Shown here: piece after piece, positions 4,316 through 61,379 of the stretch
Position numbering within the stretch: position 1 is the stretch's first letter
How the letters are laid out: each line of letters opens with the position of its first letter
Source: an uncultured Candidatus Saccharibacteria bacterium
Lineage (GTDB): Bacteria > Patescibacteriota > Minisyncoccia > Phycocordibacterales > UBA9973
Assembly (NCBI GenBank): GCA_964468315.1
Contig: CAYXTA010000002.1
Coordinates: forward strand, 319-64,318
Reading direction: 5' to 3'
Length of the DNA stretch: 64,000 nucleotides
Notes under the pieces: generated by a model
Database searches by the model: none
What the model saw: only the letters and a program-made list of their open reading frames with translations
What the model was told of the DNA's origin: nothing
Program-made: the position numbers and the translations under genes

Positions 4316-4327
4316 AAAAATAAAAAT

Positions 4328-4479: not shown

Positions 4480-5715
4480 TTATAAAATAAAGCTCTTGTT
4501 ACGCTTTTCTTTATGGTATTTAATAGCGAATCTATGAGCTTCGCTATTTGCGAGTAAAATATCTTTCTTTAATTTCGGATCAGCAGAGAGAATCATCTTT
4601 GCTTTATGTTTATCGTCTTTCACTACAGCAGAAACTGGGATTTTCAAATTATATTCTTTAAGAATTTTAAGCGCGACATTTCTCTGTGCTGTACTTCCAT
4701 CGACAACAATCAAATCCGGCATTTGCCATTCTGTGTGTTTAAAACGACGAGTAAGCATTTCAGAAAGTGCACCAGTATCATTTGAGCTAGTATAATTTTT
4801 TATTATAAATTTTCTGTATTCATTTTTCGCCGGCTCACCATCATGAAGTACAACCATTACACCAACCATATTCTTACCACTCATATGCGCAACATCATAC
4901 GCTTCAACCCTAAATACTTCACGAATAGGAACTTTTTCGAGCTGGTCTGGTGACTTCCCCCGAGGACCCGAGAAAAAGTTCCTATTCGTGAAGCTATCTT
5001 CTTTAATCAAAGAAACGTCTTGAATATGTTGTAATGCAAAAATCTGTCTCTTTATCTCCCCTGCTTTTTCGAAAGCATGAGCTTTTGCATACATTTTCAT
5101 TTCTTTCTCAAGATTCTTTAATATTGATTTTTTCTTACCTTCAAAAAGTAATTTTATATTTTTTATATTTTGAAATATTATTTCTTTCTGATCTGGAATT
5201 AGTTTTATTTGACGATAAAATTCATATGAACCTTTAATACGAGATTTTTCATCAAGAAATGGAAATATTTTTCTTATTAAATTAAGTGCTTCTTTCAACT
5301 GTCCGCCATTTGGAAAAGGACCATAGATTTTTGAATAATTTTTTTGTTCTAGATTTCTACCGCGAACGATGATAACTTTCGGCATCTCATCTTTTGTAAT
5401 ACAAACATAATTAAAACTCTTATCATCTTTTTCTTTCGTATTGTAATACGGCTGATGTTTTTTAATTAAATTCGCTTCTAAAATAAGCGCTTCGAGGACG
5501 CTGTCTGCTTCAGTCCATTTGACGGCATCTGCCTTAAAAACCATATCTAAAATGAGTGGTCCACGAGTGTTGATGATATCCTTGCCGAAATAGCTTTTTG
5601 TTCTGTCTTTCAAAGACGTCGCTTTGCCGATATATAAAATATCTTTCCCTTTCAAGAAAAAGTAGACTCCTGGCCGATCTGGAATATTGAATTTTTTGAG
5701 TTCTTGACTTTGCAT
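4480..5715 (-). CDS. uvrC: Excinuclease ABC subunit C, compact form with no C-terminal HhH region evident.
   Basis: 411 aa. The N-terminal GIY-YIG reads 'PGVYFFLKG...YIGKATSLKDRTKSYF'. The C-terminal UvrC endonuclease (RNase H-like) region is present ('VDGSTAQRNVALKIL'). It contains one in-frame GC-rich element (4943..4972). Confidence 0.85.
   Translation of the reverse strand: MQSQELKKFNIPDRPGVYFFLKGKDILYIGKATSLKDRTKSYFGKDIINTRGPLILDMVFKADAVKWTEADSVLEALILEANLIKKHQPYYNTKEKDDKSFNYVCITKDEMPKVIIVRGRNLEQKNYSKIYGPFPNGGQLKEALNLIRKIFPFLDEKSRIKGSYEFYRQIKLIPDQKEIIFQNIKNIKLLFEGKKKSILKNLEKEMKMYAKAHAFEKAGEIKRQIFALQHIQDVSLIKEDSFTNRNFFSGPRGKSPDQLEKVPIREVFRVEAYDVAHMSGKNMVGVMVVLHDGEPAKNEYRKFIIKNYTSSNDTGALSEMLTRRFKHTEWQMPDLIVVDGSTAQRNVALKILKEYNLKIPVSAVVKDDKHKAKMILSADPKLKKDILLANSEAHRFAIKYHKEKRNKSFIL
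4943..4972 (+). repeat. GC-rich repeat element copy 1 (subtype A), in frame inside uvrC.
   Basis: tggtctggtgacttcccccgaggacccgag. It is near-identical to the copies at 12457 and 17154. It encodes ...SGPRGKSPDQ... within UvrC. Confidence 0.6.
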
Positions 5716-8603: not shown

Positions 8604-8694
8604 AATAAAACTTTAAACACCCATCCGCTCGCGCTTATGGGTATGTGTATTAATTTGTATAAGTATTATAGCACAAAATTGGGAAATAAGAAAA

Positions 8695-10776
8695 TTATTT
8701 TACAAGCCTATCTTTCAAGATTTTAATCTCATCGCGGAGAATTGCGGCGGTTTCGAAGTCGAGTGCTTTTACCGCTTCAGACATTTGACGCTCTTTAAGT
8801 TTTACGAGTTTACTTGGATTTTTTGCAAAAAGCTTTGCATCGAGATTTAGCTCAGCTGATACGGTTTTATCATGCAAGCTATCGAGCTCTTCAGTAATGT
8901 CATGAATTTTCTTTAAAATAGTTTTTGGAGTAATGCCATTTTTTTTGTTATACGCTATCTGTGTTTCTCTTCTTCTGTTCGTCTCCCCCATAGCACGCTC
9001 CATAGAACCAGTAATACTATCTGCGTACAGAATAACTCTACCAGCAACATTTCTAGCTGCACGGCCGATCGTTTGGATGAGCGACGTCTCACTACGAAGA
9101 AATCCTTCTTTGTCAGCATCAAGAATTCCAATCAAAGATACTTCTGGCAAATCGAGTCCTTCACGAAGTAAGTTAACACCAACTAAAATATCGAACTTTC
9201 CTTTTCGAAATTCAGTAAGGATTTTTATACGCTCGATAGTTTTAATATCACTATGAACATATTCTGATTTTATTTTTTTATCTTTGAGATATGCAGATAA
9301 ATCTTCTGCCATTTTCTTGGTGAGTGTCGTCGCTATTACTCGCCCGCCTTTTTTTATTTCAACTTCGGCTTCTTTGATAAAATCCTGCACTTGGCCAGGA
9401 TAAGGCTGAAAATTCTTTTTCTGAGAAAGTCTGGCCGAGCTATTGCGAGGAGAACCGAGGACTTTTGAAGAAGATGAATTTTCGGCAGAACTTTCAGCCA
9501 AAACAGGTCGCACTTCAAGCAATGGATCAATAAGTCCAGTAGGACGGATTATTTGTTCAACGATTTGTTCACTCTCTTTTCTTTCCACTTCAGAAGGTGT
9601 CGCAGAAACATAAATAACTTGCCCAATTCTTTTTTCAAATTCATCATACTTAAGTGGGCGATTATCTTTCGCACTTGGTAATCGAAAACCGTGTTCGACG
9701 AGTGTATTTTTTCTTGAAGCATCACCTGCATACATACCTCTTACCTGCGGAAGGGTTACGTGTGATTCGTCTATAATAGTTAGGAAATCTTTTCCAAAAT
9801 ATGAAATCAATGTCTCTGGTGCTTCACCAGGTTTTTTACCTGAAAGAATTCTAGAATAATTTTCTATACCAGAACAATAACCAACTTCACGAAGCATCGC
9901 TATGTCATACATTGTTCTTCTCTTAATACGCTCAGCTTCCAAAAGTTTCCCTTCTTTATCAAATTTTTTAAGTTGAATATTCAACTCTTGTTTTATATCT
10001 TTAATAGCTTTTTCTAATTTCTTTTTATTTGTAATGAAATGTTTTGCTGGAAAAATAAAAATACTTTTTTCTTCATCTAAAATTTTTGAACTCACTGGGT
10101 CAATTTTCAAAATCCTTTCCACTTTATCACCAAATTCAACATTATAAACAAAAGTATCAGCAACAGGCATTATCTCAACTTTGCTTCCCATTGCACGAAA
10201 AGTACCCGGAGTGAGGTCTGCATTTGTACGTTCAAAATGCATTTTTATAAGTCTGGTCAATAAATCTGTTCTTGTGACTTTATCTCCTTTTGCAATCTGT
10301 AAATTCTCTTCTTGGTATTCTTCTGGACTTCCTAAACCATAAATACAAGAAACTGAAGCAACGATAATAACATCTTTGCGAGTAAGTAATGCTTGAGTAC
10401 TAGCGTGACGCAAACGATCTATCTCTTTATTTATCTGTGCATCTTTTTCTATAAAAGTATCTGTAGTAGGCATATATGCTTCCGGCTGATAATAGTCGTA
10501 ATATGAAACAAAATAATGCACAGCATTTTCTGGAAAGAATGCGCGGAATTCTTGCGCAAGTTGAGCTGCGAGAGTTTTATTGTGAGCAATTACTAAAGTT
10601 GGTTTATTTATTTTTTGTATAACATTTGCGATGGTGAATGTTTTACCACTTCCTGTCACACCCAAAAGTGTCTGCTTGTGCATACCTTTTTTCAAACCAT
10701 CAAGCAAACTTTTTATTGCCTTTGGTTGGTCACCTGCTGGTTCAAATGGAAGTTTTAAATCAAATGTATTTTTCAT
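8695..10776 (-). CDS. uvrB: Excinuclease ABC subunit B.
   Basis: 693 aa with Walker A 'GVTGSGKTF', helicase motifs, a C-terminal UvrB/UvrC interaction region 'EAVKALDFETAAILRDEI' and the 'PTGLIDPLLEVRPV' motif. It carries a roughly 30-aa insertion right after EVRPV that includes the GC-rich element. Confidence 0.95.
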   Translation of the reverse strand: MKNTFDLKLPFEPAGDQPKAIKSLLDGLKKGMHKQTLLGVTGSGKTFTIANVIQKINKPTLVIAHNKTLAAQLAQEFRAFFPENAVHYFVSYYDYYQPEAYMPTTDTFIEKDAQINKEIDRLRHASTQALLTRKDVIIVASVSCIYGLGSPEEYQEENLQIAKGDKVTRTDLLTRLIKMHFERTNADLTPGTFRAMGSKVEIMPVADTFVYNVEFGDKVERILKIDPVSSKILDEEKSIFIFPAKHFITNKKKLEKAIKDIKQELNIQLKKFDKEGKLLEAERIKRRTMYDIAMLREVGYCSGIENYSRILSGKKPGEAPETLISYFGKDFLTIIDESHVTLPQVRGMYAGDASRKNTLVEHGFRLPSAKDNRPLKYDEFEKRIGQVIYVSATPSEVERKESEQIVEQIIRPTGLIDPLLEVRPVLAESSAENSSSSKVLGSPRNSSARLSQKKNFQPYPGQVQDFIKEAEVEIKKGGRVIATTLTKKMAEDLSAYLKDKKIKSEYVHSDIKTIERIKILTEFRKGKFDILVGVNLLREGLDLPEVSLIGILDADKEGFLRSETSLIQTIGRAARNVAGRVILYADSITGSMERAMGETNRRRETQIAYNKKNGITPKTILKKIHDITEELDSLHDKTVSAELNLDAKLFAKNPSKLVKLKERQMSEAVKALDFETAAILRDEIKILKDRLVK
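9428..9463 (+). repeat. GC-rich repeat element copy 2 (subtype B), in frame inside uvrB.
   Basis: agtctggccgagctattgcgaggagaaccgaggact. It shares gtctggccgagc...gaggagaaccgaRgac with the smc copy. It encodes ...LGSPRNSSARLSQ.... Confidence 0.6.
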
Positions 10777-11855: not shown

Positions 11856-13133
11856 CTATGCTTTATAATTTTTCAAAAACTCTTCTTTAAATTCAAAAAA
11901 AGTATCATCAAGTATTGTTTGGCGAATTTTAGCAACAAGAGAAACGATGAAATGAAGATTGTGTATTGAAGCAAGTGTACCAGCGAGCATTTCTTTGCCA
12001 TGAAAAAGATGTGCTATATATGCACGAGTATAATTTTTACAACTATAACATTCACAATCATTTTCAACTGGGGAAAAATCTTCTCTATATTTTGCATTCG
12101 TAATAATAATCTTCCCTGTTTTTGTATATAAAGTTCCATTTCTACCAAGTCGTGTAGGTAAGACGCAGTCGAAAAGATCTACACCGTTTTCAATACCCAT
12201 AAAAAGATCTTCCGGTTCACCAATACCGAGCAAGTGCCGTGGCTTTTCTTCCGGCAAAATTTCATTTACCCATTTCACAGCAGTAGACATATCTTCTTTT
12301 GCGAAAGATCCACCAATACCAAAACCATCAAAACTTTTTCCATCTACATTCATTTCAGAAATTATTTTTGCGGATTTTTTTCTTAAATTCTCTTCCCTAC
12401 CACCCTGTACTATTCCAAATAAAGCTTGTTCAAGATGCGAAATTTGTTCAGACGAATGGTCTGGCTGACTTCCCCCGAGGACCTGAGTGTGAGCAAATTT
12501 CGCATCTTCTAATTTTTTATGTTCTTCTAAACATCTTTTCGCCCATGCATGAGTACGATCAAGTGCTTCTTCTTGATATTTCACATCTTCGGCTGGTGAA
12601 GTACATTCATCAAAAGCAAAAATAATATCTGCACCAAGATTGTGTTGGATTTGAATTGATTTCTCTGGAGTAATGTAATGAATAGATCCATCTAAATGTG
12701 ATTTAAAAGAAACTCCATCTTGCCCAATCTTTGCTAGACGAGGTGCATCAGAATCATCAAATCTTTCTGGAATCATAAGTGAAGGATCAGTAATTTTTAA
12801 AACTTTCGACATATCTTTGCCATAAGCAGCACCGAGTGAGAATACTTGAAACCCTCCACTATCAGTCATAGTAGGACCAGACCAATTCATAAATTTTCCT
12901 AAGCCTCCAGCTTTTGCCACAATTTCATCTCCTGGTTGTAAAAATAAATGATAAGTATTTGCAAGTACAACTTGAGCAGAAGCATTTAAAACTTGTTCTG
13001 GGTTTAATGATTTCACAGTTGCTTTTGTTCCTACAGTAACAAAAGCCGGAGTCTGTATATCTCCATGAGGAGTACTTAGAATTCCGACTCTACCCAAACT
13101 ATTTTTTAATTTTTTTTCTATTTTAAAATTCAC
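11856..13133 (-). CDS. tgt: Queuine tRNA-ribosyltransferase.
   Basis: 425 aa. 'LGRVGILSTPHGDIQTPAFVTVGT' and 'ALFGIVQGG' are present, with C-terminal Zn ligands 'CECYSC...H'. It contains an in-frame GC-rich element (12457..12487) just upstream of ALFGIVQGG. Confidence 0.9.
   Translation of the reverse strand: MNFKIEKKLKNSLGRVGILSTPHGDIQTPAFVTVGTKATVKSLNPEQVLNASAQVVLANTYHLFLQPGDEIVAKAGGLGKFMNWSGPTMTDSGGFQVFSLGAAYGKDMSKVLKITDPSLMIPERFDDSDAPRLAKIGQDGVSFKSHLDGSIHYITPEKSIQIQHNLGADIIFAFDECTSPAEDVKYQEEALDRTHAWAKRCLEEHKKLEDAKFAHTQVLGGSQPDHSSEQISHLEQALFGIVQGGREENLRKKSAKIISEMNVDGKSFDGFGIGGSFAKEDMSTAVKWVNEILPEEKPRHLLGIGEPEDLFMGIENGVDLFDCVLPTRLGRNGTLYTKTGKIIITNAKYREDFSPVENDCECYSCKNYTRAYIAHLFHGKEMLAGTLASIHNLHFIVSLVAKIRQTILDDTFFEFKEEFLKNYKA
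12457..12487 (+). repeat. GC-rich repeat element copy 3 (subtype A), in frame inside tgt.
   Basis: tggtctggctgacttcccccgaggacctgag. It encodes ...GGSQPDHSSEQ.... Confidence 0.6.
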
Positions 13134-16410: not shown

Positions 16411-17118
16411 ATGTCAAAAAACGAAACAGTTACAATAGATAAAATGTTCGAAGCAGGAGCCCAATACGGCTACTCAAAAACAAGAAGACATCCTTCAGTT
16501 TCTTCTTATATTTTTACTACAAAAGCTAAAACAGATATCATAGACCTAGAGAAAACAGAAAAAATGCTTGCTGATGCTTGTGCATACGTAAAAGACCTTG
16601 GTGCTCGAAACAAGACTATTCTTTTTGTTGGTACAAAACCTGAAGCTCGTGAAGCTATCAAGATGTCTGCAGAATCTATCAATATGCCATACGTTATCGA
16701 AAGATGGATCGGTGGAGCTATCAGTAATTTTAGTGAAATCAAAAAAAGAATAGCTGAACTTGAAAATTACAAAGTTGAAAACGAAAAAGGTGAACTACAA
16801 AAATACACAAAGAAAGAAAGACTCGTTCTCGCTAAAAAAATGGAAAAATTAGATAAATATTATTCTGGTATGCTTGGTATCAAAAAAATACCAGATGCTA
16901 TGTTTATAATTGATGCTAAAAAAGAAGCTATTGCTGCTACAGAAGCTCGTAAATCAAATCTTCCAGTTATTGCCCTTACAAATACTGACTCAAACATAAA
17001 AGAACTATCTTTTGCTGTCGTTGCAAATGATGCTTCAAGAAACAGTATCAATGTCTTTGTTAAAGCTATAGCTGATGCTTACAAGCAAGGACAAATGTCA
17101 GTTGCTGATAAAAATTAA
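16411..17118 (+). CDS. rpsB: 30S ribosomal protein S2.
   Basis: 235 aa with S2 family sequence throughout and conserved rpsB-tsf synteny. Confidence 0.9.
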   Translation: MSKNETVTIDKMFEAGAQYGYSKTRRHPSVSSYIFTTKAKTDIIDLEKTEKMLADACAYVKDLGARNKTILFVGTKPEAREAIKMSAESINMPYVIERWIGGAISNFSEIKKRIAELENYKVENEKGELQKYTKKERLVLAKKMEKLDKYYSGMLGIKKIPDAMFIIDAKKEAIAATEARKSNLPVIALTNTDSNIKELSFAVVANDASRNSINVFVKAIADAYKQGQMSVADKN

Positions 17119-17126: not shown

Positions 17127-17206
17127 AACTCATTATGGGTTTTGTTTTTTAAGTGGTCTGGTGATTTCCCCCGAGGACCCGAAAAAAATAGAACCCATAA
17201 TGAGTT
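17127..17206. repeat. Intergenic inverted repeat, probably the rpsB-tsf terminator/attenuator, split by a GC-rich element.
   Basis: Perfect 15-bp arms aactcattatgggtt (17127-41) and aacccataatgagtt (17192-206). They extend imperfectly by about 10 nt of T/A-run. The 50-nt spacer contains element copy 4. Confidence 0.6.
17154..17182 (+). repeat. GC-rich repeat element copy 4 (subtype A), intergenic.
   Basis: tggtctggtgatttcccccgaggacccga, centred in the loop of the rpsB-tsf palindrome. Confidence 0.6.
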
Positions 17207-17215: not shown

Positions 17216-17992
17216 ATGTCACAAATAACAACAGAACTTGTAAAAGAATTAAGAGATGCTACTGGTGTCTCTGTTATGCAATGTAGAAAAGCTTTAGAAG
17301 AAGCTGAGGGTGATATGGCAAAAGCTGTAGCTATATTAAAAAAATCTAGTGGAGATATAGCTCTAAAGAAAGCTGGACGTGAAGCAAAAGACGGAGCAAT
17401 AGCTGTTGTACAAAAAGACGATAAAGCAATATTACTTGCACTTAATTGTGAGACTGATTTCGTAGCAAAAAACGAAGATTTCACTAACCTTCTTTCTTCC
17501 CTATCACAAAAAGCAATATCTGAAGGAGTGGAAAAAATGAAAACAGAAGCAAAAGATATGATAGATCCTATCATTCAAAAAACTGGTGAAAACATCCAAC
17601 TCGGTGAAACTTACGAAGTAACAGGAAGTACACTAGGATATTATGTACACAATGGTAAATCAGCAGTTATTGTTTCTCTTGAAGGTGGAACAATGGAACT
17701 TGCTAAAGACATAGCTATGCATGTCGCTGCAATGAAACCAGAATATATCACAGCTGACGAAATCACAGAAGAGATGAAAAATACAATGACAGAAATCTTC
17801 CAAAAAGAAGTTGCAAGTATCGATAAACCAGAAGAAATAAAAAATAAAATGCTTGAAGGAAAAATCTCAACATATTTCAAAGAAAAAACTCTCACAGAAC
17901 AACCTTTCATCAAAAATGGCGATGAAACTATTTCAAGTTTGCTTTCAAAAGCAAATGCAAAAATAAAAGAAGTAAAACGCTATTCAATATAG
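17216..17992 (+). CDS. tsf: Elongation factor Ts.
   Basis: 258 aa. The N-terminal UBA-like region reads 'LVKELRDATGVSVMQCRKALEEAEGDMAKAV', followed by the EF-Ts dimerisation core. Confidence 0.9.
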   Translation: MSQITTELVKELRDATGVSVMQCRKALEEAEGDMAKAVAILKKSSGDIALKKAGREAKDGAIAVVQKDDKAILLALNCETDFVAKNEDFTNLLSSLSQKAISEGVEKMKTEAKDMIDPIIQKTGENIQLGETYEVTGSTLGYYVHNGKSAVIVSLEGGTMELAKDIAMHVAAMKPEYITADEITEEMKNTMTEIFQKEVASIDKPEEIKNKMLEGKISTYFKEKTLTEQPFIKNGDETISSLLSKANAKIKEVKRYSI

Positions 17993-18028: not shown

Positions 18029-18430
18029 ATGACTCTTGTTTTAATTTTGTTTTTTATAGCACTCATAGGTCTAGTCATTATGATTATGAAAAGGGTTTTT
18101 CTTATTCGTGCTGGATCAAGGATCATTATTAACGATGATCCTTATCTTCCTCCAGTACACGAAGTGCGTCATATTTTTGTAAAAAATACTAGACAATATA
18201 GTTTGATAATTATAAGTATCATATTAAGAACATCAATAAGAACTTATATTTTATTAAGAAGAAAAGGTAGTGAAATTGCTCATAAAATAATAAATAAATA
18301 TAATAAAAGCACATCAAAATTGGGACCAGAAAAAAGAGAAGTTAATCGTTTTTTGAAAGGTATATCTGAATATAAAAATAAAATTAAGAATTTGAAAGAA
18401 AAAATAATAGAGGAAGAGTTAAATTCTTAG
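18029..18430 (+). CDS. Hypothetical small membrane protein.
   Basis: 133 aa with an N-terminal TM helix and a basic, Lys/Arg-rich remainder. No recognisable domain. Confidence 0.4.
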   Translation: MTLVLILFFIALIGLVIMIMKRVFLIRAGSRIIINDDPYLPPVHEVRHIFVKNTRQYSLIIISIILRTSIRTYILLRRKGSEIAHKIINKYNKSTSKLGPEKREVNRFLKGISEYKNKIKNLKEKIIEEELNS

Positions 18431-18510
18431 GGTTGATTTATACAAAAAAAATGCTAGTATGGAATGTAATACCTCTTTGGCTGTTTTGGTAAACGACAAC
18501 AGAATACAAC

Positions 18511-18583
18511 GCCGCTTTAGCTCAGTTGGTAGAGCAACGCTTTTGTAAAGCGAAGGTCCTCGGTTCAAGTCCGAGAAGCGGCT
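18511..18583 (+). tRNA. tRNA-Thr (anticodon TGT).
   Basis: gccgctttagctcagttggtagagc... The acceptor stem is gccgctt/aagcggc, the D-loop agttggtag, the anticodon stem cgct/agcg with loop tttgtaa (anticodon TGT), the T-arm ctcgg-ttcaagt-ccgag, and discriminator T. Confidence 0.8.
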
Positions 18584-18592
18584 CAAGAAAAG

Positions 18593-18633
18593 TAAAAAAA
18601 ACGTAAACAACTTTGTGTGTTTACGTTTTTTTG
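18593..18633. terminator. Bidirectional terminator after tRNA-Thr and after minus-strand gene 18635..19300.
   Basis: A-run, then acgtaaaca...tgtttacgt, then T7. Confidence 0.6.
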
Positions 18634-20100: not shown

Positions 20101-21390
20101 TTATTTATTTTGAACAGGGTTTTCTATTAAATAATCTCTTTCATTTGACCAACTTGCTTCATGTGAAGTTATAGCGTTATATACTGCTTTTAAGAGCCAA
20201 ATTGGGGCTAAAACACTGTATATAACCAAAAAAACTGGAATGTCCCAAGAAGTATACTTTCCCCTGCCATAGATCATTTTTCTACCATTAAGCAATCCAG
20301 CAATAACCAAAATATACAATATTATAGATATAAACACAAAAGCCTTTGTACTTAGAAAGAAAAGATTAAAAGAAAATAAATTACCACCCAAAACATGAAA
20401 ACCAACAGCCTGAGATTCTAAAACTTTTTTTGCTACATACTCATACAACCTTGTGAAAGAAAAAAACAAAAGAAATATCGTACCAGTAATAGAAATAATA
20501 CCTGATGGTAATGTAAAGATTCCGATAGTTCCATATTTAGGACGGAAAAATAATTCTCTATAATCAAAAGCATTTCTTATGAAACCATAAATCCAACGTA
20601 CGCGCTGACGATATAATTTAGGTATACTATTTGGACTTCCTGTATACACATAAGCATCTGGACAATGATCTATCTTCAAACCATTCTTTTGCATTCGAAG
20701 AGCTATTTCTTGATCTTCCGTATGGTGTGCTTTTCTGTAAATACCAATTTTATCAAATACTGTTTTACGAAAAATAGAAAAAGGACCAGGAGTTACGTGT
20801 ATACCTCCTAAAAATGCCAACATTTTTTTATTGTAATGTGCCATATCATATTCTGCACGTTGTGCGTACTGGAGAATATTTTTTGGATTACGAACTACTA
20901 TACTAGGAGCTACAGCCATTGTATCTTCATTTACAAAATAACTCATTATCCTTTTTAAGGATTCAGGGTGAACAGTAGAATCAGCATCAAGACAACCAAC
21001 AAATTCTGTTTGAGTATTTTCTAAGCCCTTGTTTAAAGCATTATGTTTCCCTACTTTTTTTTCTTGAAAAATTCTTATTTGAGAATTTTTTTCTAAATTT
21101 TGTAAAACATTCCAAGTGCCATCTTTGGAAGCGTTATCTACAACAATAATTTCTAACCTATCTTTTGGGTAATCAAGTTCGAGCAACGAATCAATAGTAT
21201 TTAAAACGGTTTTCTCTTCGTTATAGCAAGGTACTATTATGGTAACAGTTGGATACTCATTAAGCGTAATAGCATCTTTTCTGATTATGATTTTTTTTCT
21301 ATTTTCAAAAAAAGTAACAAGTAAAAAAACTTGCACGTAAACGGCCAAAAAACTAACTATGTAAAATAAAATACCAAAAACTGAAGCCAT
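20101..21390 (-). CDS. Processive family-2 glycosyltransferase (PgaC/IcaA/cellulose-synthase-like) with integrated TM helices.
   Basis: 429 aa. GT2 signatures 'IIVPCYNEE', 'VVDNASKDGT' and 'CLDADS', the processive motif Q-R-V-R-W ('YRQRVRWIYG'), and N- and C-terminal TM segments. Confidence 0.8.
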   Translation of the reverse strand: MASVFGILFYIVSFLAVYVQVFLLVTFFENRKKIIIRKDAITLNEYPTVTIIVPCYNEEKTVLNTIDSLLELDYPKDRLEIIVVDNASKDGTWNVLQNLEKNSQIRIFQEKKVGKHNALNKGLENTQTEFVGCLDADSTVHPESLKRIMSYFVNEDTMAVAPSIVVRNPKNILQYAQRAEYDMAHYNKKMLAFLGGIHVTPGPFSIFRKTVFDKIGIYRKAHHTEDQEIALRMQKNGLKIDHCPDAYVYTGSPNSIPKLYRQRVRWIYGFIRNAFDYRELFFRPKYGTIGIFTLPSGIISITGTIFLLFFSFTRLYEYVAKKVLESQAVGFHVLGGNLFSFNLFFLSTKAFVFISIILYILVIAGLLNGRKMIYGRGKYTSWDIPVFLVIYSVLAPIWLLKAVYNAITSHEASWSNERDYLIENPVQNK

Positions 21391-21884: not shown

Positions 21885-22634
21885 ATGAATATTGAAGAAA
21901 ATACAAAAGAAGAAGTTCAAGAGATAAAAAACACAAAAGAAATAAACCTAAGCACTTCAATAATAATAGCTAGTATTGTTGTAGCTGGTTCTGTGCTTAT
22001 AGGTTTTTCTTGGTTAAAAAACGGATCTTCTCCTAAGGCAAATGAAGCTATAAAAAATGTTCGAAACGATATTAAAGCATTAGAAACAGTTCCACCTATT
22101 TCTACAAGTGATAAAGTTCTAGGAAATCCTAATGCAGAAATTACAATTATAGAATATTCTGATTTTCAATGCCCTTTCTGTGGCAGATTTCATAAAGATG
22201 CAGAAGAAACAATTAAAAATAATTATGTAAATAAAGGTTTAGTTTCTTTCGTATATAGAGACTTCGCTTTTCTTGGAGATGAATCTATAAAATCAGCAGA
22301 AGCTGCAAAATGTGCAGATGATCAAGGAAAATTCTGGGAATATCACGACTATCTTTTCACACACCAAAAAGGTGAAAATCAAGGTAATTTTTCAAATAAA
22401 AATCTAAAATCTTTTGCTAGCGAATTAGGATTAAATACTACGATATTTAATAAATGTCTTGATTCTGATAAATACAAACAAGCAGTGTTAGATGAAACAA
22501 GTGCAGGATCTCAAGCTGGTGTAGAAGGTACGCCTAAAAGCTTTATATTAAAAAATGGTGAAGTTGTAGATACTATAGACGGCGCAGAACCTTCAAATAG
22601 TGTAATAAATAAATTAGATAAAGTATTAAGATAA
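21885..22634 (+). CDS. DsbA-family thiol:disulfide oxidoreductase, membrane anchored.
   Basis: 249 aa with an N-terminal TM. 'YSDFQCPFCGRFH' is a CPFC active site in the canonical DsbA/BdbD context. Confidence 0.8.
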   Translation: MNIEENTKEEVQEIKNTKEINLSTSIIIASIVVAGSVLIGFSWLKNGSSPKANEAIKNVRNDIKALETVPPISTSDKVLGNPNAEITIIEYSDFQCPFCGRFHKDAEETIKNNYVNKGLVSFVYRDFAFLGDESIKSAEAAKCADDQGKFWEYHDYLFTHQKGENQGNFSNKNLKSFASELGLNTTIFNKCLDSDKYKQAVLDETSAGSQAGVEGTPKSFILKNGEVVDTIDGAEPSNSVINKLDKVLR

Positions 22635-22642
22635 AAAAAGAA

Positions 22643-22680
22643 AAATCCCTAACAAATATTTATTTGTTAGGGATTTTTTA
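22643..22680. terminator. Bidirectional terminator between convergent genes.
   Basis: Perfect palindrome tccctaacaaata-ttt-atttgttaggga followed by a T-run. Confidence 0.65.
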
Positions 22681-22691
22681 ATAGATTCGAT

Positions 22692-23042
22692 CTATTCACC
22701 CTCTTTGATTTCTCCTGTTTTTTTAACAAAAATAAGATTTAAGGCTTCAACAAAAGCTGATTGAATAGCATTAGAGAATTCTCTTACCATGTGTAAAGCA
22801 TTACCTTCAATTTCAATAAATTTTTCATCAATTTTTATTTTGATATCCATTAAATATGAAGAAACCTCTAGTCTTATGTAGGAAAATGAATACTCTTCAA
22901 TAAATTTTATTTCATGAGTTAAAAGAGGATTGGCTATTTTGGAATCAAATTTCCATTTACCTAAAATTTTTAGTTGTTTGATTTTTTCAATAGCGGTCTC
23001 TTGATCCACATTATGTTCAAGAATAATTTTGAAACTTTTCAT
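22692..23042 (-). CDS. Hypothetical protein.
   Basis: 116-aa ORF with no recognisable motif. Confidence 0.45.
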   Translation of the reverse strand: MKSFKIILEHNVDQETAIEKIKQLKILGKWKFDSKIANPLLTHEIKFIEEYSFSYIRLEVSSYLMDIKIKIDEKFIEIEGNALHMVREFSNAIQSAFVEALNLIFVKKTGEIKEGE

Positions 23043-23165
23043 TTTTATTAGATTTAATTATTTATACTAATTTATTTATCAAAGTTATTTTGATTTATAA
23101 TATAGTAAAAATAAAAAAAGTCAATAAAATACAAATTTAAAACATTATTTTCAATTTGACAAATT

Positions 23166-24467
23166 TTGTGTATAATCAATAAATATATGGAAAAATGGCG
23201 TAAAAGTATACTTTTTATTGGTGATGGACTTTCTCTTTGTCTGGCTGGATACTTGATGTTAATAAGTCGTTTTGGTTTACCGAAGGCAACAGAACAAATC
23301 CCCCTGCACTTAAAACCATTCATAATTTGGGGTATTTTAGTTTTTCTAATTTTCTATATTTTTAATTTGTACGAAGTAAGTGCGCTAAAACCAACACTCA
23401 ATAACATAAGACAATTTATTTTTGCAATCATTGTAAGTGCAATAACAGGAATAATATTATTTTATATTTTCCCTTTTTCTGTTACACCAAAAACAAATTT
23501 AATCATAACTCAACTATACTTTACTTTTTTCATTTTAATTTGGAGAAGATCTTTCTATCGTCTTTTTTCAAAAAAATTCAAAAACAATATTGCGTTTATA
23601 GGAGAAACACCTGAATCAAAAATACTTATTAAAAACATAACAGATAATCCTCCTATTGGATATGAATACAAAGGTACTTTTGAAAATTTTGAAATGCTGC
23701 AAAAAAGTAATTTTAAAATAAATACGGTTGTATATGCTTCTAGTAATAGTAATATTGATTTATTAGAACTAAGTAGATCAAATTATATTCACTTAGATAT
23801 AAACAAGGCTTTTCAGATTATTCTTTCTAAAATACCAGTTGAACTTATGAATGATGTAATTGCTCTTGATATGCTTGAAGATAGAAAAAATATTCTATCT
23901 AAAACAATAGAAAGGTTTTTAGATATATTTTTTTCTGTATTAGTGTTAATAATAACTCTCCCAATAACAATAGTTACTTCATTTTTAATATACACAGAAG
24001 ATGGTAAAAATATTTTTTACAAACAAAAACGTATCGGGTTAAAAAATAAAGAATTCTCAATAATAAAATTTCGCTCAATGAAAATTGATGCCGAAAAAAA
24101 TGGAGCTGTATGGGCGAGCTCTGAAGATATACGCATAACTCGTATAGGAAAAATAATACGCAAACTTCACATCGATGAAATACCTCAAATGATCAATATT
24201 CTTCGTGGTGATATAACACTCGTAGGGCCAAGACCAGAAAGACCAGAATTCGTAAATATGCTTGAAAAAGAAATTCCATATTATTTTTTAAGACACACAA
24301 TAAAACCCGGATTCACTGGTTGGGCTCAAATAAAATATCGATACGCTCGCACCATAGAAGATTCAAAAGAAAAATTTGAATATGACTTACACTATATAAA
24401 AAACAGAAATTTTTTTCTTGATATGGGAATTATTGTGAGAACAATACAAATAATATTTACTCATTAA
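23166..24467 (+). CDS. Polyprenyl-phosphate hexose-1-phosphate transferase (WbaP/bacterial sugar transferase family), the initiating enzyme.
   Basis: 433 aa. The N-terminus is multi-TM. The C-terminal 'bacterial sugar transferase' domain reads 'KRIGLKNKEFSIIKFRSM...ITLVGPRPERPEF'. The real start may be the ATG at 23187. Confidence 0.85.
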   Translation: MCIINKYMEKWRKSILFIGDGLSLCLAGYLMLISRFGLPKATEQIPLHLKPFIIWGILVFLIFYIFNLYEVSALKPTLNNIRQFIFAIIVSAITGIILFYIFPFSVTPKTNLIITQLYFTFFILIWRRSFYRLFSKKFKNNIAFIGETPESKILIKNITDNPPIGYEYKGTFENFEMLQKSNFKINTVVYASSNSNIDLLELSRSNYIHLDINKAFQIILSKIPVELMNDVIALDMLEDRKNILSKTIERFLDIFFSVLVLIITLPITIVTSFLIYTEDGKNIFYKQKRIGLKNKEFSIIKFRSMKIDAEKNGAVWASSEDIRITRIGKIIRKLHIDEIPQMINILRGDITLVGPRPERPEFVNMLEKEIPYYFLRHTIKPGFTGWAQIKYRYARTIEDSKEKFEYDLHYIKNRNFFLDMGIIVRTIQIIFTH

Positions 24468-24503
24468 ACTGGAAAAAAACCTATAAAATGCTAGTATAGA
24501 ATT

Positions 24504-25331
24504 ATGAGCCACACTCATACTACAGTTATAAAACCTAAGAAATTATTTAGTTTTTCTGACCTAAAAGAAATATGGGAATACAGAGAATTGCTCTATTTTT
24601 TCACATGGAGAGATTTAAAAGTACGTTATAAACAAACAGTTATCGGTGTACTTTGGGCAATATTGCAACCATTTATCACAATGGTAGTATTTACTGTTTT
24701 TTTTGGTGGTTTATTAAAAATTTCTTCTGACGGAGTACCCTACCCTATTTTTGTTTATACCGGTCTTTTGTTTTGGCAATTTTTTTCTTCTGCTCTTACA
24801 GATACGAGTAATGTGCTAATAACAAATCAATCAATAATCACAAAAGTTTATTTCCCAAGACTTTTACTTCCCCTTTCTTCTGTAATGACAAAATTTATTG
24901 ATTTTGCATTTGCTTCGATAATACTAATCGGTATGATGTTCTATTATGGATACACTCCAAACCTTTTAGGATTATTAATCCTCCCCCTTCTTTTAATAAT
25001 CACATTTATGGCTTCAGTCGGTCTTGGCCTTTTTCTCGCTTCAGTAAATGTAAAATACAGAGATGTACGTTATGCTTTACCATTTTTTATACAAATACTT
25101 ATGTTTGTCACACCAGTTATTTATCCAGCAGGAATTGCAGGAAAATATTCTTGGATACTTGCACTCAACCCCATGATGGGTGTCATTCAAAGTGCTCGTG
25201 CTGCATTACTTGGAACAACGGTTCTAAACTGGACATTAGTTAGTATTTCACTTTTTGCTACTTTTATCTTTATGTTATTCGGAATTTACACATTCAAAAA
25301 AACAGAAAGATATTTTGCTGATTTAATTTAA
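24504..25331 (+). CDS. wzm: ABC-2 type polysaccharide export permease (Wzm/TagG-like).
   Basis: 275 aa with six predicted TM helices and an ABC-2 family profile. It sits immediately upstream of the cognate ATPase. Confidence 0.8.
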   Translation: MSHTHTTVIKPKKLFSFSDLKEIWEYRELLYFFTWRDLKVRYKQTVIGVLWAILQPFITMVVFTVFFGGLLKISSDGVPYPIFVYTGLLFWQFFSSALTDTSNVLITNQSIITKVYFPRLLLPLSSVMTKFIDFAFASIILIGMMFYYGYTPNLLGLLILPLLLIITFMASVGLGLFLASVNVKYRDVRYALPFFIQILMFVTPVIYPAGIAGKYSWILALNPMMGVIQSARAALLGTTVLNWTLVSISLFATFIFMLFGIYTFKKTERYFADLI

Positions 25332-25335
25332 ATAT

Positions 25336-26574
25336 ATGGAAAAACCAATAATACAAGTAAAAAATATAGGTAAGAAATACAACATTAATCATCAAAAAAT
25401 TGGTTATGTTACACTACGAGATAAAATAACAAATGTATTTGTGAATCCTTTTTCTTTTTTAATAAATAAAATTAAACAAGTCGCTGGTATAGGAACAAAA
25501 GAAGAATTTTGGGCATTAAAAGATATAAATTTTGAAATAAAAAAAGGTGAAGTTGTAGGTATTGTTGGCCAAAATGGTGCAGGAAAATCTACATTATTAA
25601 AAATACTTTCACAAATCACTCCACCGACGACCGGAGAGATCAAAATCCACGGTACTGTTGGGAGTTTACTTGAAGTTGGAACAGGTTTTCATCCAGAACT
25701 TACAGGAAGAGAAAATATATTTTTAAATGGTGCTATTTTGGGTATAAAGAAAAAAGATATAATAAAGAAATTTGAAAAAATCGTAGAATTTGCAGGTATT
25801 GAGAAATTTCTAGACACTCCAGTAAAATACTACTCTAGTGGAATGTATGTTCGTCTCGCCTTCTCTGTCGCAGCTCATATGGAAACAGATATATTGATTA
25901 TTGATGAAGTACTCGCTGTTGGTGATGCTGAATTTCAAAAAAAATGCCTTGGTAAAATGGAAGATATTACAAAAAACCAAGGACGCACTATTTTATTTGT
26001 TAGTCATAATATGGAGGCAGTTAAAAAAATATGTGAAAAAGTTATTTGGTTAGAAAAAGGATCTGTAAAAGATATTGATAGTACAGAAAAAATAATAAAA
26101 GAATATTTAAATCAAAACAATGATGGTGTGTCTGAAAAATGGATAAATAAAAATAATGTTAAAGAAAATATTTTCTTTAAACCAGAAGTTTTTGAAATAA
26201 TAAGAGAAGATAAAGATATATATATAAAAATAGAAGCAGAAATAAAAGAAATAAATAAAGAGTTAACAATAGGATATGCTTTGTACACAGAAAATATGGA
26301 ACTTTTATACTGGTCATATCAAACAGATGACAATGATATTGAATTAAAAGTTGGTAAAAATATTTTTCAATCAAAACTACCATTAGAAATTTTAAACAAT
26401 GGAAGATATATAATAGAATTAATCGGTGGTATACATGGAAAAGAATGGTTTTTTGAACCAAATAAAGGAAACCCAACATTAATAGTCGAAATAAATAAAG
26501 AATTTAATAATAAACCATTCTGGATTAACCAAAGACCTGGAATATTAGCACCAAAAATATCATGGAAAATATAG
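25336..26574 (+). CDS. wzt: ABC transporter ATP-binding protein (Wzt/TagH-like) with a C-terminal extension of about 170 aa.
   Basis: 412 aa with Walker A 'GQNGAGKST', signature 'YSSGM', and Walker B 'ILIIDE'. The C-terminal extension resembles a Wzt substrate-binding domain. Confidence 0.85.
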   Translation: MEKPIIQVKNIGKKYNINHQKIGYVTLRDKITNVFVNPFSFLINKIKQVAGIGTKEEFWALKDINFEIKKGEVVGIVGQNGAGKSTLLKILSQITPPTTGEIKIHGTVGSLLEVGTGFHPELTGRENIFLNGAILGIKKKDIIKKFEKIVEFAGIEKFLDTPVKYYSSGMYVRLAFSVAAHMETDILIIDEVLAVGDAEFQKKCLGKMEDITKNQGRTILFVSHNMEAVKKICEKVIWLEKGSVKDIDSTEKIIKEYLNQNNDGVSEKWINKNNVKENIFFKPEVFEIIREDKDIYIKIEAEIKEINKELTIGYALYTENMELLYWSYQTDDNDIELKVGKNIFQSKLPLEILNNGRYIIELIGGIHGKEWFFEPNKGNPTLIVEINKEFNNKPFWINQRPGILAPKISWKI

Positions 26575-28031: not shown

Positions 28032-28833
28032 TTTAAATATAGAAATTTCAAATATTTCAGTTGTTATACCTAATTGGAATGGAGCAAAAACGCTTGAGAA
28101 TGTTATTAAAAGTTGCATAAATCAAACATTAAAACCTCTTGAGATACTTATTTGTGATGATGGATCAACAGATAATAGTAAAGAAGTTGTAGATCAAATA
28201 AATAATGATTTAGTTAAATGGATTCCACTTCCACACTCTAGAACACCAGCTATTCCTAGAAATAATGGAATAAAAATAAGCAAAGGAGAATGGATTGCTT
28301 TCTGTGATAGTGATGATGAATGGTTGCCGACAAAATTAGAAAAACAAATAAAAAAAGCTTATGAAACAAAATGCAAAGCTATCTGTACTAATGCAATAAG
28401 AAAAATAAATGGTATAAATATAATTGGAAATATGATCAATTATAAAAAAGAAAAAATATCTTTTAATGATTTATTAAATAGCAACAGTGTTGTGTGTAGC
28501 TCATCGATGATTCATAAATCAGTTCTTGAAAAAGTTGGCGGATTTTCAGAAGCAATAGAATACGGCAGTTATGCCGATTTTATATGCTGGCTTAGAATAA
28601 CCACTCAGACTAATTTTGCTTTTATTAATGAACCCTTGGTTATATATGACGACCACCCACAAACAAGTATACGGGCAAATGAAACATCAGCGGAAAGAAT
28701 AAAAATCCTAGCCTTAGATAATTTTATAATATGGTCAAAAAAAATGAATCTCCCCTATTTCAGATATCTTATAAAAAAGAATCTTATAAAAAATAAATTA
28801 TTAAATTTAATCAAAAAAATAATTCATGCTTAA
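28021..28833 (+). CDS. Family-2 glycosyltransferase.
   Basis: 270 aa. 'ISVVIPNWNGAKTL', 'ILICDDGSTDNS' and 'CDSDDEW' are GT-A motifs. Confidence 0.8.
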   Translation: MKNNLNIEISNISVVIPNWNGAKTLENVIKSCINQTLKPLEILICDDGSTDNSKEVVDQINNDLVKWIPLPHSRTPAIPRNNGIKISKGEWIAFCDSDDEWLPTKLEKQIKKAYETKCKAICTNAIRKINGINIIGNMINYKKEKISFNDLLNSNSVVCSSSMIHKSVLEKVGGFSEAIEYGSYADFICWLRITTQTNFAFINEPLVIYDDHPQTSIRANETSAERIKILALDNFIIWSKKMNLPYFRYLIKKNLIKNKLLNLIKKIIHA

Positions 28834-31119: not shown

Positions 31120-31124
31120 AAAGA

Positions 31125-59042: not shown

Positions 59043-61379
59043 TTATTTTGCAATAGCTGCAGCTTCTTCGAATTTCACTGAGAGGAGTTTAGAACCTCCA
59101 TCAGAGCCAACGGTAACGCCGTAGAGGACACCAGCACGAGACATAGTCTCACGATTGTGAGTGACGACGATGAGCTGTGAATGGTGCGAGAGTTTTTCGA
59201 GCATATCTCCATATTTACGAGAATTCGCTTCGTCGAGCGCTGCGTCTGTCTCGTCGAGGACGAGGAATGGCGGAGGGTTCACTTGTGACACAGCAAAAAG
59301 AAGTGCGATAGATGTGAGTGATCTTTCCCCTCCTGAAAGAGCTTGAAGTTCTTTCACTTTTTTATGTGGAAGAGAAACACTGATTTCAATACCATGTTCA
59401 AAGACAATAGCTTCTTCGTCTATTTCTTCTTCATCTTTCTTGCCTCTTTTTTGTTCTGCGACAACAGAAAGAAATGCAGAACCTCCCCCGAACATAAGAG
59501 CAAAGAATTCTTGGAATTCTTTATTGATTTTTGTAACACCAAGTTTAAATTCAGTATCTATCTTTTCTTTAAGATCGAGCATTAGCTTACGAAGTGATTC
59601 TATGCTCATAGAAAGATCTTCCATTTCTTTTGCAAGGAATGCATCTCTATCTCTCACCTCTTCAAATTCTTTTAATACTTCAGTTGTACCTCCAAGTCCA
59701 GCATCTTCGAGTTTTATTTTAATGCGTTCGATTTTTCTACGACGTTCTTCTTGATTTTCTCTTGATTCATCGATATTTTCTATTTGAAAATTCTTATATG
59801 ACAAAATATCTGCACCGAGAAATATTGAACCTTCTCGTATTTGATCTTCAAAGCTAGTCATAAGGCGAGCGTAACTTTCTTCTTTTATAGCAATAGTATT
59901 TAAAGACGAAATGAGTTCTTGTTTTCTAACAGCAAAATCAAATTTGTTTTTTTGTATTTCTTGAAAAGAAAAATTATCTTTTTGTATTTCATTTTTCAAA
60001 TTTTCTAATGCTTGAGCAAACTTCCCTTCTTCATCTTCTATCTTACTCATCTCTGCGAGAATTTCTGTTTGAGTATTTTTCAAATTTTCTAGATTATTTT
60101 GATTCTCAAAAGCATCAGTTATGTGTTCTTGCGAATGGTCTGGCCGAGCGGAGTGAGGAGAACCGAAGACCTGAGCAGGAGCACTAACTGATGCTGTTCT
60201 AATAAAGCGATCCAAGATATCTTTTATCTTTCCTAACATCGGTGCAATGTTTTCTAAAACATCTATGTACATAGCTTCTTCTATATATTCATTTAACTCT
60301 TTATAGAAAGAATCAAAATCTTCTTTTGAAATACTTACTTTGTCGTTTGTATGTTCTTTTACTTGAGTTTCATTATGTACAACTGGTGCGCGATTGCTTT
60401 CCATTTCTATCATAGCTTCTATGCGACCAAGTTTACGTGAAAGTTCACTTTTTATATTTCTTATTTCTGATATTTTCTTTTCAAGATCTCGTATTTCTAT
60501 ATTCTTTAAATTTTCAGTATTTGGTGTTGTATTTTCTATTCCTGATATTTTTCCAGAAATAACTTCAATTTCATTTTGAATACGCTTTTTATCTTCTAAA
60601 AAAGAAGTATTTTGATTTTCTAAATAAAGCGCTTCTCTTTTTAAATATTCACGAGAAAGATCAAGAAGTTCTATCTTTAGTTCTTTTGCTTTTTCTAATT
60701 TCTCTACTTGTTTACGCAAAAAATTAAGATGTGGAGCTATTTCTTTACGAAGAAGTGAAACTTCTTTCATATTGTTTGTAGTACGGTCAAGTTTACGCTC
60801 ACTTTCTTTTATTTTGTATTGATATATCTTGAGTCCGAGTGCATCTTCGATCATTTCTCTTCTGTCTTTCGCTGAAGCATTAAGTATTCTATCTGCTTCT
60901 CCTTGAGAAATAATATGGTGACCAGAAGAACCAATGTTCACAGATGAAAGCAAGGTCATAATATCTTTCAAACGAACTTCTGATCCATTGAGAGAATATT
61001 TATTTAAACCATCAGAAAAAACTTCACGAGAAACAGTAATGTGTTCGTAATTTAAATTTACTTTATCACCATTTTCATTTTCTAATTTAAAAACCTTATC
61101 AGTATTGTTGAAACAAATAGAAACAGAAGCACGAGAAGATTTTGGTAGTGTTTTTGAGCCTTTGAAAATAAGATCAAGCCCTGCTTTCCCACGCATTGAT
61201 TTGATGGATTGTTCACCAAGTACGAAACGTATCGCTTCTACGACATTAGACTTTCCAGATCCATTAGGACCAACAACAGATGTGATAGAACTTTGAAACT
61301 CTAAAGAAGTTTTTTTTGCGAAAGATTTGAAACCATTTATTTCTAAAGATTTAAGTCGCATAGAAATTAATCGAGCCAA
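59043..61379 (-). CDS. smc: Chromosome segregation SMC-family ATPase, short form.
   Basis: 778 aa. N-terminal Walker A 'GPNGSGKSN', long coiled-coil regions, C-terminal signature 'LSGGERSLTSIALLFAV' and Walker B 'FLVLDETDAALD'. It is about 400 aa shorter than canonical SMC. It contains one in-frame GC-rich element (60127..60166). Confidence 0.8.
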   Translation of the reverse strand: MARLISMRLKSLEINGFKSFAKKTSLEFQSSITSVVGPNGSGKSNVVEAIRFVLGEQSIKSMRGKAGLDLIFKGSKTLPKSSRASVSICFNNTDKVFKLENENGDKVNLNYEHITVSREVFSDGLNKYSLNGSEVRLKDIMTLLSSVNIGSSGHHIISQGEADRILNASAKDRREMIEDALGLKIYQYKIKESERKLDRTTNNMKEVSLLRKEIAPHLNFLRKQVEKLEKAKELKIELLDLSREYLKREALYLENQNTSFLEDKKRIQNEIEVISGKISGIENTTPNTENLKNIEIRDLEKKISEIRNIKSELSRKLGRIEAMIEMESNRAPVVHNETQVKEHTNDKVSISKEDFDSFYKELNEYIEEAMYIDVLENIAPMLGKIKDILDRFIRTASVSAPAQVFGSPHSARPDHSQEHITDAFENQNNLENLKNTQTEILAEMSKIEDEEGKFAQALENLKNEIQKDNFSFQEIQKNKFDFAVRKQELISSLNTIAIKEESYARLMTSFEDQIREGSIFLGADILSYKNFQIENIDESRENQEERRRKIERIKIKLEDAGLGGTTEVLKEFEEVRDRDAFLAKEMEDLSMSIESLRKLMLDLKEKIDTEFKLGVTKINKEFQEFFALMFGGGSAFLSVVAEQKRGKKDEEEIDEEAIVFEHGIEISVSLPHKKVKELQALSGGERSLTSIALLFAVSQVNPPPFLVLDETDAALDEANSRKYGDMLEKLSHHSQLIVVTHNRETMSRAGVLYGVTVGSDGGSKLLSVKFEEAAAIAK
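60127..60166 (+). repeat. GC-rich repeat element copy 5 (subtype B), in frame inside smc.
   Basis: tggtctggccgagcggagtgaggagaaccgaagacctgag, encoding ...FGSPHSARPDHSQ.... Confidence 0.6.

Follow-up and report, generated by a model that had tools for sequence, protein, structure and literature searches.

A multi-copy hairpin element with a conserved tip and a site-specific stem as the probable occupant of the rpsB-tsf spacer in a Paceibacteria genome

The spacer between rpsB and tsf, in the 64,000-nt stretch of contig CAYXTA010000002.1 analyzed here (the window), holds an 80-nt hairpin at 17127-17206 in which AT-rich arms enclose a GC-rich tip. We propose that this hairpin is probably one full copy of a hairpin insertion element present in multiple copies in this Paceibacteria lineage, which belongs to the Patescibacteria or candidate phyla radiation (CPR). 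Most likely, the element is a selfish hairpin comparable to the Rickettsia palindromic elements (RPEs), albeit one with a conserved tip on a stem that is free in sequence and locally templated. We regard it as selfish or neutral for the host rather than as a regulator.

A scan for the GC-rich core, performed on one genome per species, recovered it only in metagenome-assembled genomes of Patescibacteria, and a metagenome scan contributed 3 further copies. With relatives' syntenic loci fetched through Tgt, RpsB and Tsf (L numbers below), the tabulated family comprises 28 copies at 17 sites from about 10 Patescibacteria sources. All 28 copies possess flanking arms, and the placement of the core exactly at the center of a palindrome, which an earlier sequence-only reading had reported for the rpsB-tsf copy, proved to be the rule across the family. 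Conversely, none of the 30 tip-motif matches in GC-rich viral contigs, which are attributable to chance and serve as a negative control, had arms (0/30). A unit spans 62-108 nt, with an AT-rich stem that is usually 17-28 bp in length and a GC-rich tip of ~25-35 nt or more. The conserved tip takes the form GAR-YGGTCTGG-middle-CCGAGGACC-YGA, with the middle distinguishing sub-families: it reads (C)TGAYTTCCC in family A and CCGAGYnnnnGCGAGGAGAAC in family B, and other middles are seen in L016 and L018. The apical stem covaries between the two families, with GG..CC in family A as against AA..TT in family B. In contrast to the tip, the arms at one site bear no relation to those at another (mean identity, 0.36 versus 0.32 after shuffling). 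Nevertheless, arms pair consistently within each copy: across the family we counted 480 Watson-Crick pairs, 34 G:U, 2 A:C and 27 other combinations. An alignment of 14 copies displays both-sided changes in 14 of 15 stem pairs, with 0 of 500 shuffles matching the observed pairing or covariation, although within-sequence pairing is partly built into this test by the anchored extraction of arms, which maximized pairing. There is also a set of copies in which the same arms together with the tip occur upstream of rplL, dnaK and an aminoacyl-tRNA synthetase gene in two genomes, indicating that whole hairpins can also move. A protein-level census with the tip-encoded peptides returned no candidate sharing three words.

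At the rpsB-tsf locus itself, several details of the sequence-only reading were confirmed. The perfect 15-nt arms AACTCATTATGGGTT (17127-17141) and AACCCATAATGAGTT (17192-17206) are present, and their proposed extension holds: they reach 24 nt with 92% complementarity around 32 intervening nucleotides, with both mismatches being G:U on the + strand. The GC-rich 29-nt core GTGGTCTGGTGATTTCCCCCGAGGACCCG likewise exists, but it starts one base to the left of the 17154-17182 first assigned to it (Table 1), and this copy is the sole non-coding one within the window. The 97-nt spacer has a predicted RNA fold of -39 kcal/mol (z = -7.2), a value equalled by none of 200 shuffles. As an identical 97-nt spacer is found in nine independent metagenome assemblies, the hairpin is no assembly artefact. 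In the window at large, which has a GC content of ~31%, three hairpins have arms of at least 14 nt and a loop of 24-48 nt, versus 0-2 in shuffles. A permissive Rfam search at the locus yielded generic miRNA-type hairpin noise only, and at the gathering threshold the whole window yielded two tRNAs and nothing else.

Comparison of relatives shows that the spacer varies between coding flanks that are identical over 30 nt on both sides. Beside the 97-nt type of the window, L060 (Tsf 98% identical), L062 and L008 have a hairpin of 101-102 nt whose arms are different and whose loop is richer in AT, and a 37-nt spacer lacking such a hairpin is found in L063-L066 (Tsf 95% identical). In the more distant relatives L010 and L016, the rpsB-tsf hairpins have other arms and related tip ends and are likewise sense-oriented; in L018 the spacer is 73 nt long and includes a short GC-rich element, and it measures only 9 nt in L017, 13 nt in L050 and 34 nt in L049. 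An uninterrupted palindrome, which would be anticipated if the arms were native, was sought in about 10 relatives, and none has the window arms without the core. Based on these alternative spacers between identical coding flanks, none of which displays the arms alone, the whole 80 nt, arms included, constitutes an insertion. On the sequences compared, the rpsB-tsf spacer is a hot spot of hairpin gain and loss. The 37-nt spacer of L063-L066 contains a perfect 14-nt palindrome, TTTAAAGCTTTAAA, inside a direct repeat, TTTAAAGCTTTAAAGCTT; this palindrome might be a footprint or a seed of hairpin formation.

These spacers also contradict the earlier suggestion that the palindrome is a native rho-independent terminator or attenuator, as those of relatives are 9-37 nt long or hold unrelated hairpins, and the arms came with the insertion. 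The structure does resemble a terminator in being a stable hairpin in an operon spacer flanked by runs of A and T. However, it departs from one in having a loop of 32 nt rather than 3-8 nt, an AT-rich stem, a 3' flank (CAAAAAAAT) that is not a U-tract, and close relatives without the hairpin. We accordingly rejected an intrinsic terminator at 17127-17206, and a promoter and terminator consensus scan found no + strand terminator at the hairpin. The copy would add its -39 kcal/mol hairpin to the operon transcript; once folded, it should leave the rpsB stop and the tsf start 8 and 9 nt from the two sides of the stem base, which compares with empty spacers of 9-13 nt. Hence, translational coupling of rpsB and tsf, which had been thought open to alteration by the structure, is probably little changed.

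The window contains five copies of the element, in uvrC, uvrB, tgt, the rpsB-tsf spacer and a gene for an SMC-like protein, versus none in 30 shuffles; the two family B copies, in uvrB and the SMC-like gene, were recovered by a looser motif search (Table 1). The implication of the sequence-only reading that the in-gene copies are bare cores is wrong, as those in uvrC and tgt have their own 22-nt arms, each different in sequence. The 21-24 bp stems expected in the uvrC, tgt and rpsB-tsf transcripts are plausible candidate substrates of RNase III. A gene for RNase III (61367-62062, - strand) adjoins the SMC-like gene that carries a hairpin copy.

Table 1. Coordinates of the rpsB-tsf hairpin, its flanking genes and the in-gene copies of the element in the window
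Feature	Position	Strand	Remarks
rpsB (ribosomal protein S2)	16411..17118	+	ORF and Pfam labels of syntenic loci; stop codon 8 nt 5' of hairpin base
tsf (EF-Ts)	17216..17992	+	ATG 9 nt 3' of hairpin base
5' arm, rpsB-tsf hairpin	17127..17150	+	perfect over the outer 15 nt; 24 nt if two G:U pairs are included
Tip, rpsB-tsf hairpin	17151..17182	+	32 nt, GC-rich; AAG-TGGTCTGG-TGATTTCCC-CCGAGGACC-CGA; 29-nt core 17153-17181; conserved ends GGTCTGG and CCGAGGACC
3' arm, rpsB-tsf hairpin	17183..17206	+	
Family A copy in uvrC	4917..4993 (core 4942-4970)	+ (gene -, element antisense)	perfect 22-nt arms CTTCACGAATAGGAACTTTTTC and complement; 33-nt tip; in-frame read-through
Family A copy in tgt	12432..12508 (core ~12457-12486)	+ (gene -, element antisense)	22-nt arms AAGATGCGAAATTTGTTCAGAC and partner, 2 mismatches; 33-nt tip
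Family B copy in uvrB	9404..9486	+ (gene -, element antisense)	tip AAGTCTGG-CCGAGCTATTGCGAGGAGAAC-CGAGGACTT
Family B copy in SMC-like gene (59043..61379, -)	60111..60195	+ (element antisense)	

We then considered where the arms come from. In the uvrC gene of L010, a family A hairpin sits within a resident family B element: one arm holds the B tip sequence TTCTCCTCGCGAA, as does L008 at the same place, and the opposite arm is its complement. In the empty tgt alleles of L049 and L050 the outer flanks, coding for KLEEQK and IFPQA, are native and already quasi-palindromic (GGGAAATTTCCC; CTTGA…TCAAG). The tgt gene of the window has lost the conserved F-P of FPQALFG, over which the complement of the left flank has been written to give ISHLEQALFG, such that the right flank now exactly complements the left. 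Furthermore, comparison of the window with L010 shows four differences between their orthologous uvrC arms, of which three are fully compensated in the opposite arm and the fourth forms a G:U pair. Template switching is known both to create perfect hairpin stems and to maintain or repair them (PMC8794818), and we interpret the arm copying and compensation in uvrC and tgt as footprints of intrastrand, or fold-back, template switching. Judging from the alleles compared, an arm that is a reverse-complement copy of pre-existing neighboring sequence is apparent in L010 uvrC and window tgt and is not demonstrable at rpsB-tsf. Tests of the left arm against the right flank and of the right arm against the left flank gave no general signal; tandem arm-flank copies or target-site duplications were not consistent, with isolated signals at uvrB (p = 0.003), L007 and L008; and no arm matches occur within ±1.5 kb. 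The uvrC gene of L010 additionally displays a separate PSTALGTGR replacement near its N-terminus.

The mismatches that remain in the stems are strongly asymmetric between strands. When copies were oriented by their tips and scored symmetrically, the transition-type arm mismatches on the GGTCTGG…CCGAGGACC strand (the tip strand) amounted to 34 G:U versus 2 A:C, and with one copy per site to 17 versus 0 (p = 1.5e-5). In a subset of 19 copies the mismatches comprise 20 G:U, 10 G:A or G:G, 6 T:T or A:A, 1 C:T and 0 A:C. Since a mismatch containing G corresponds to a far less stable one containing C on the opposite strand, the hairpin is kept foldable on the tip strand, and it is on this strand that stem foldability is maintained. 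The usual deamination asymmetries of the non-transcribed or leading strand would, to judge from the skew and the gene strands, predict the opposite bias. Orientation is equally one-sided: in-gene copies are antisense at 10 of 10 independent sites, with the host open reading frame (ORF) open through each and three frames in use, the tip accordingly encoding SGPRGKSPDQ, QVLGGSQPDH or RSSGEVSQTI. The orientation is uniform per contig whatever the strand of the gene (5/5 in the window and 5/5 in L010), and in the window only the rpsB-tsf copy is sense-oriented, the rest being antisense. Selection to weaken hairpins in mRNA would account for the G:U bias at the in-gene copies, but it leaves unexplained the G:U pairs that the window and L016 copies at rpsB-tsf have on their mRNA strand, which represent only three events.

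Among close strains, copies come and go and replace one another. The 84-nt uvrB hairpin of the window is missing from its closest relative, L012, and the spacer between the ATP-grasp gene and ddl is filled in L010 only. At the uvrC site, four genomes that are otherwise >95% identical present family A (the window and L010), family B (L008) and a third type (L012). The tgt allele of the window is 54 nt longer than that of L049, which is roughly one arm plus the tip. The 120 homologs (P0001-P0120) of the window Tgt (tgt, 11856-13133) reveal one surface loop as a recurrent site of insertion: empty forms are 403-408 aa in length, as against 425 aa in the window, and the inserts range over 15-60 aa and belong to at least six unrelated peptide types, including the element tip in two frames. 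Examples of these inserts include SHSNLNMVNE..AYVAES, FLGSLSPSADGALPLGSSACETP, NSPLEEYP..TPSRKRATPQEGN and PSPSTEWDPRAQKFERS. This diversity suggests that several other families of GC-rich elements exist in the clade.

Further insertions were observed in genes of relatives. The uvrC genes of L012 (10655-11945) and L008 (17680-18933) carry small GC-rich palindromic in-frame inserts without AT-rich arms; that of L012 is 36 nt long (GCCTGCCCGCCCTCACGATCATTCGGGAGCAGGCGG), its counterpart in L008 lies at the same codon and measures 18 nt, and the site is empty at ~5393 of the window. The ATP-grasp gene (window ortholog, 3122-4315) contains an in-gene hairpin with perfect 16-nt arms at L008:19284-19348 and L012:12297-12361. 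It shares the geometry of the elements with a GC-rich tip but has none: its 33-37 nt loop is AT-rich, and part of the loop matches the left flank in reverse complement (ATGGAAAAG/CTTTTTCCAT).

In light of these observations, we posit that a folded single strand is the form in which the element works and probably also spreads; this strand would more likely be single-stranded DNA at replication than RNA. Fold-back template switching would copy one flank to the other side of the tip, making the arms complementary and keeping them so; such copying of a local flank would account for arms that are specific to their site and in many cases perfect. Several points weigh against this interpretation. The flank-copy signal is absent at most sites, and arm templating does not have the same polarity at L010 uvrC, window tgt and uvrB, which are the informative loci. 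The tips, including their non-essential middle TGACTTCCC, are near-identical between copies with unrelated arms, which fits a core-only mobile unit better than old copies of whole hairpins. Just one arm sequence, GCAAATTATTTTATTTCT, recurs at more than one locus (L001, L003 and L007). Hairpins have been kept for long at orthologous sites with strand-specific tolerance of mismatches, as would be the case for a functional RNA. Finally, a Pfam scan of the window ORFs recovered no transposase, HUH, reverse transcriptase or L7Ae domain, which is weak evidence given that the window represents 64 kb of a larger genome.

Of the alternatives to a hairpin element with locally templated arms, one that retains some appeal, despite seeming unlikely to us, holds that the GC-rich core of 29-33 nt is itself the mobile unit and inserts at the center or loop of existing palindromes, with the rpsB-tsf arms being a native terminator or attenuator that was hit. 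The conserved unit indeed lacks arms of its own beyond GAR…YGA, near-identical tips are mounted on unrelated arms, and different tips occupy the same sites in close relatives. Insertion of 33 nt into a native AT-rich stem of 15-18 bp with a loop of 2-8 nt would generate exactly the observed architecture. The earlier idea of insertion at a palindrome center finds some support in L010 tgt, where the outer 14-16 bp of the arms are native flanks already present in the empty, quasi-palindromic alleles of L049 and L050, but it finds none at rpsB-tsf, where arms without the core occur in 0 of about 10 relatives and spacers with identical coding flanks are 37 nt long or hold unrelated hairpins, those of distant relatives being 9-34 nt. 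Moreover, coding sequence is not expected to offer perfect palindromes of 2 x 21 nt in advance at 10 sites, L010 uvrC and window tgt each have an arm that has visibly been copied anew from the other side, and identical arms accompany the tip at three loci. This last point, along with the small size, multiple copies, palindromic nature and presence/absence polymorphism, would also suit a classical MITE (miniature inverted-repeat transposable element), with the arms as terminal inverted repeats, the transposase encoded elsewhere and the in-gene copies degenerate or reduced to cores, given that one arm type is shared by three loci in two genomes. However, a MITE would show the reverse of a conserved tip with unrelated arms, target-site duplications are not consistent, and no transposase was found among the window ORFs scanned. 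The sequence-only reading had offered this form, with the rpsB-tsf arms as terminal repeats of a full-length copy and the gene copies as cores, as its second option, but the in-gene copies are fully armed and their arms are unrelated between sites, and we consider it very improbable.

A different type of explanation, to which we assign a low probability, somewhat below that of core insertion, is that of a functional structured RNA: the tip would form a kink-turn or K-loop on a long stem, be bound by a protein akin to the L7Ae family, and serve the host in processing, stability or regulation. By its sequence, the tip can be written in this manner, as GGUCU-GGU-GA-loop-GA-GGACC. What the sub-families share is exactly the C-stem (GGUCU/GGACC) and the two GA dinucleotides, with the middle left free, and 26 of the 27 true copies have the 5' GA although the search pattern did not require it. 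The apical stem covaries (GG..CC in family A, AA..TT in family B, with a further U.G to U-A change in the copy at 60138), the bias toward G:U and other G-containing mismatches follows the tip strand, hairpins persist at orthologous sites with compensatory change, and the tip strand is the mRNA strand in the rpsB-tsf spacers of the window, L016 and L010. On the other hand, the tip strand runs antisense to the mRNA of the host gene at each of the 10 in-gene sites, and the promoter scan found no promoter. Presence varies between close strains, which argues that the element is not essential, and unrelated AT-rich tips are found at the same sites in L008 and L060. A bulge of 4 nt is seen in many variants, Rfam has no matching family, and there is no L7Ae-family gene among the window ORFs scanned. 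We continue to favor a hairpin element that is selfish or neutral. More speculatively, and with a probability that we would likewise place low, such elements could be self-propagating tip modules, or else the conserved strand could be transcribed, with the tip as a protein-binding kink-turn and antisense hairpin RNAs thereby present in CPR housekeeping genes. As a tip module, a kink-turn-like GC-rich hairpin would act as a folded single strand, and fold-back synthesis at the landing site would build a stem of ~21 bp from the host flank, adding about 54 nt, a multiple of three. If so, site-specific long hairpins would be made inside essential genes, unlike any described bacterial repeat.

Other candidate identities were tried and rejected. 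A CRISPR repeat is excluded by the lack of an array, a spliced or excised intervening sequence by host ORFs that stay open through every copy, and a hammerhead-like core by the lack of a CUGANGA motif; an integron attC site was considered and dropped. A tRNA fragment was also rejected, the weak core-motif match at 18555 being tRNA-Thr itself. A 63-aa ORF at 18419-18610 (-), containing '…LNRGPSLYKSVALPTELKRR', is a spurious reading across this tRNA-Thr(TGT) (18511-18584), and its core-like match is the tRNA T-arm.

Six other intergenic hairpins of the window (296-327, 4323-4362, 18595-18632, 22641-22678, 35753-35786 and 44442-44481) are terminator-like, with perfect AT-rich stems of 15-18 bp, loops of 2-8 nt and runs of A and T at their flanks. 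They look like the ordinary bidirectional terminators of this genome, i.e. the uninterrupted form. Long imperfect palindromes, with arms of 25-26 nt that are 76-85% complementary around a 1-nt center, are located at 20176-20226 and 58894-58946. The uvrB-uvrA spacer (~8600-8700) corresponds to L012:7420-7730, where extra stretches of 120 nt and 87 nt are present in sequences that are otherwise 91% identical over 14 kb; one of these stretches holds a 63-aa ORF on the opposite strand. A low-GC island at ~22000-35800 (25-29% GC), without copies of the hairpin element, encodes a glycosylation or O-antigen-type cluster with a sugar transferase, an ABC-2 exporter, several GT2, GT6 and GT11 glycosyltransferases, methyltransferases, an epimerase and a Wzy-like ligase.

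The genomes of CPR bacteria are among the smallest and most streamlined in the bacterial world, yet in the genomes compared here hairpins of 60-110 nt are present in essential genes (uvrB, uvrC, tgt, pheS and the SMC-like gene). Hairpins also occupy a spacer that is just 9 nt long in one relative, and they differ between strains with identical flanks. Should the tgt site be a fair guide to how general the family is, the family would be a major unannotated source of protein length variation, strain polymorphism, and noise in assembly and annotation. Likewise, a conserved tip combined with a free stem that is foldable on one strand would offer a natural system for the building of hairpins by template switching, and a testable candidate for a new mobile element acting as a single strand or for a kink-turn RNA. 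In practical terms, annotation of the rpsB-tsf operon should not list the 'terminator' among its regulatory features. Our literature searches returned no prior description of such elements in CPR bacteria, which is not proof of absence, and we could not find a described counterpart of a hairpin element with a conserved tip and a free stem in the literature searched.

Several known systems nonetheless share individual traits with the element. At the level of sequence resemblance, the C-stem, 3-nt bulge, G.A and A.G pairs and loop of a kink-turn or K-loop, a motif of box C/D, the U4 5' stem-loop and Kt-7, fit onto GGUCU-GGU-GA-CUUCCCCC-GA-GGACC of family A, and the bulge GGU fits the N-R-U of box C. 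When set against the kink-turn consensus (PMC5061560), however, the element differs in the 4-nt bulges of its variants, the lack of a non-canonical stem and the placement of the motif strand antisense to host genes. Repetitive extragenic palindromic (REP) sequences and REPINs, which are mobilized by RAYT transposases of the HUH type, and the IS200/IS605 elements, which transpose as single strands, resemble it in presenting a hairpin recognized on one DNA strand with an orientation tied to the strand and not to genes; both traits would fit the bias of mismatches toward one strand and an orientation that is uniform within each contig. REPs are extragenic, with conserved stems and a GTAG or CGTC tag (PMC3733652), whereas copies of the hairpin element are mostly intragenic, their stems are variable, no tag is visible, and the window yielded neither a RAYT nor a TnpA gene.

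Template switching at quasi-palindromes produces reverse-complement copies of adjacent sequence, perfect stems and multi-base compensatory changes in one step (PMC8794818, PMC7202029, PMC8604942). The arms of L010 uvrC and window tgt match this pattern, but it is a mutational process rather than an element and does not by itself account for a tip of 25-35 nt shared across loci and genomes. GC-rich mobile hairpins that invade spacers, and sometimes coding sequence, of AT-rich compact genomes are represented by the GC clusters of yeast mitochondria and the repetitive hairpin-forming elements of sponge mitochondria. These are organellar and, unlike in the hairpin element, their copies share the whole sequence; we know of no report of site-specific long AT-rich arms around a shared tip among them. 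The closest parallel is provided by the RPEs, small palindromic repeats of an AT-rich reduced genome that are found in frame in unrelated housekeeping genes, where they are translated, and also in non-coding sequence (PMC10969869). The hairpin element is similarly multi-copy, palindromic and in frame in unrelated genes, with the ORF remaining open at 10 in-gene sites. However, RPEs are about 100-150 bp in length, with a full-length consensus and a conserved peptide, while the hairpin element, at 62-108 nt, conserves only its tip, which is read in three frames and is always antisense in genes, sets it on a site-specific stem, and resides in Patescibacteria rather than Rickettsia.

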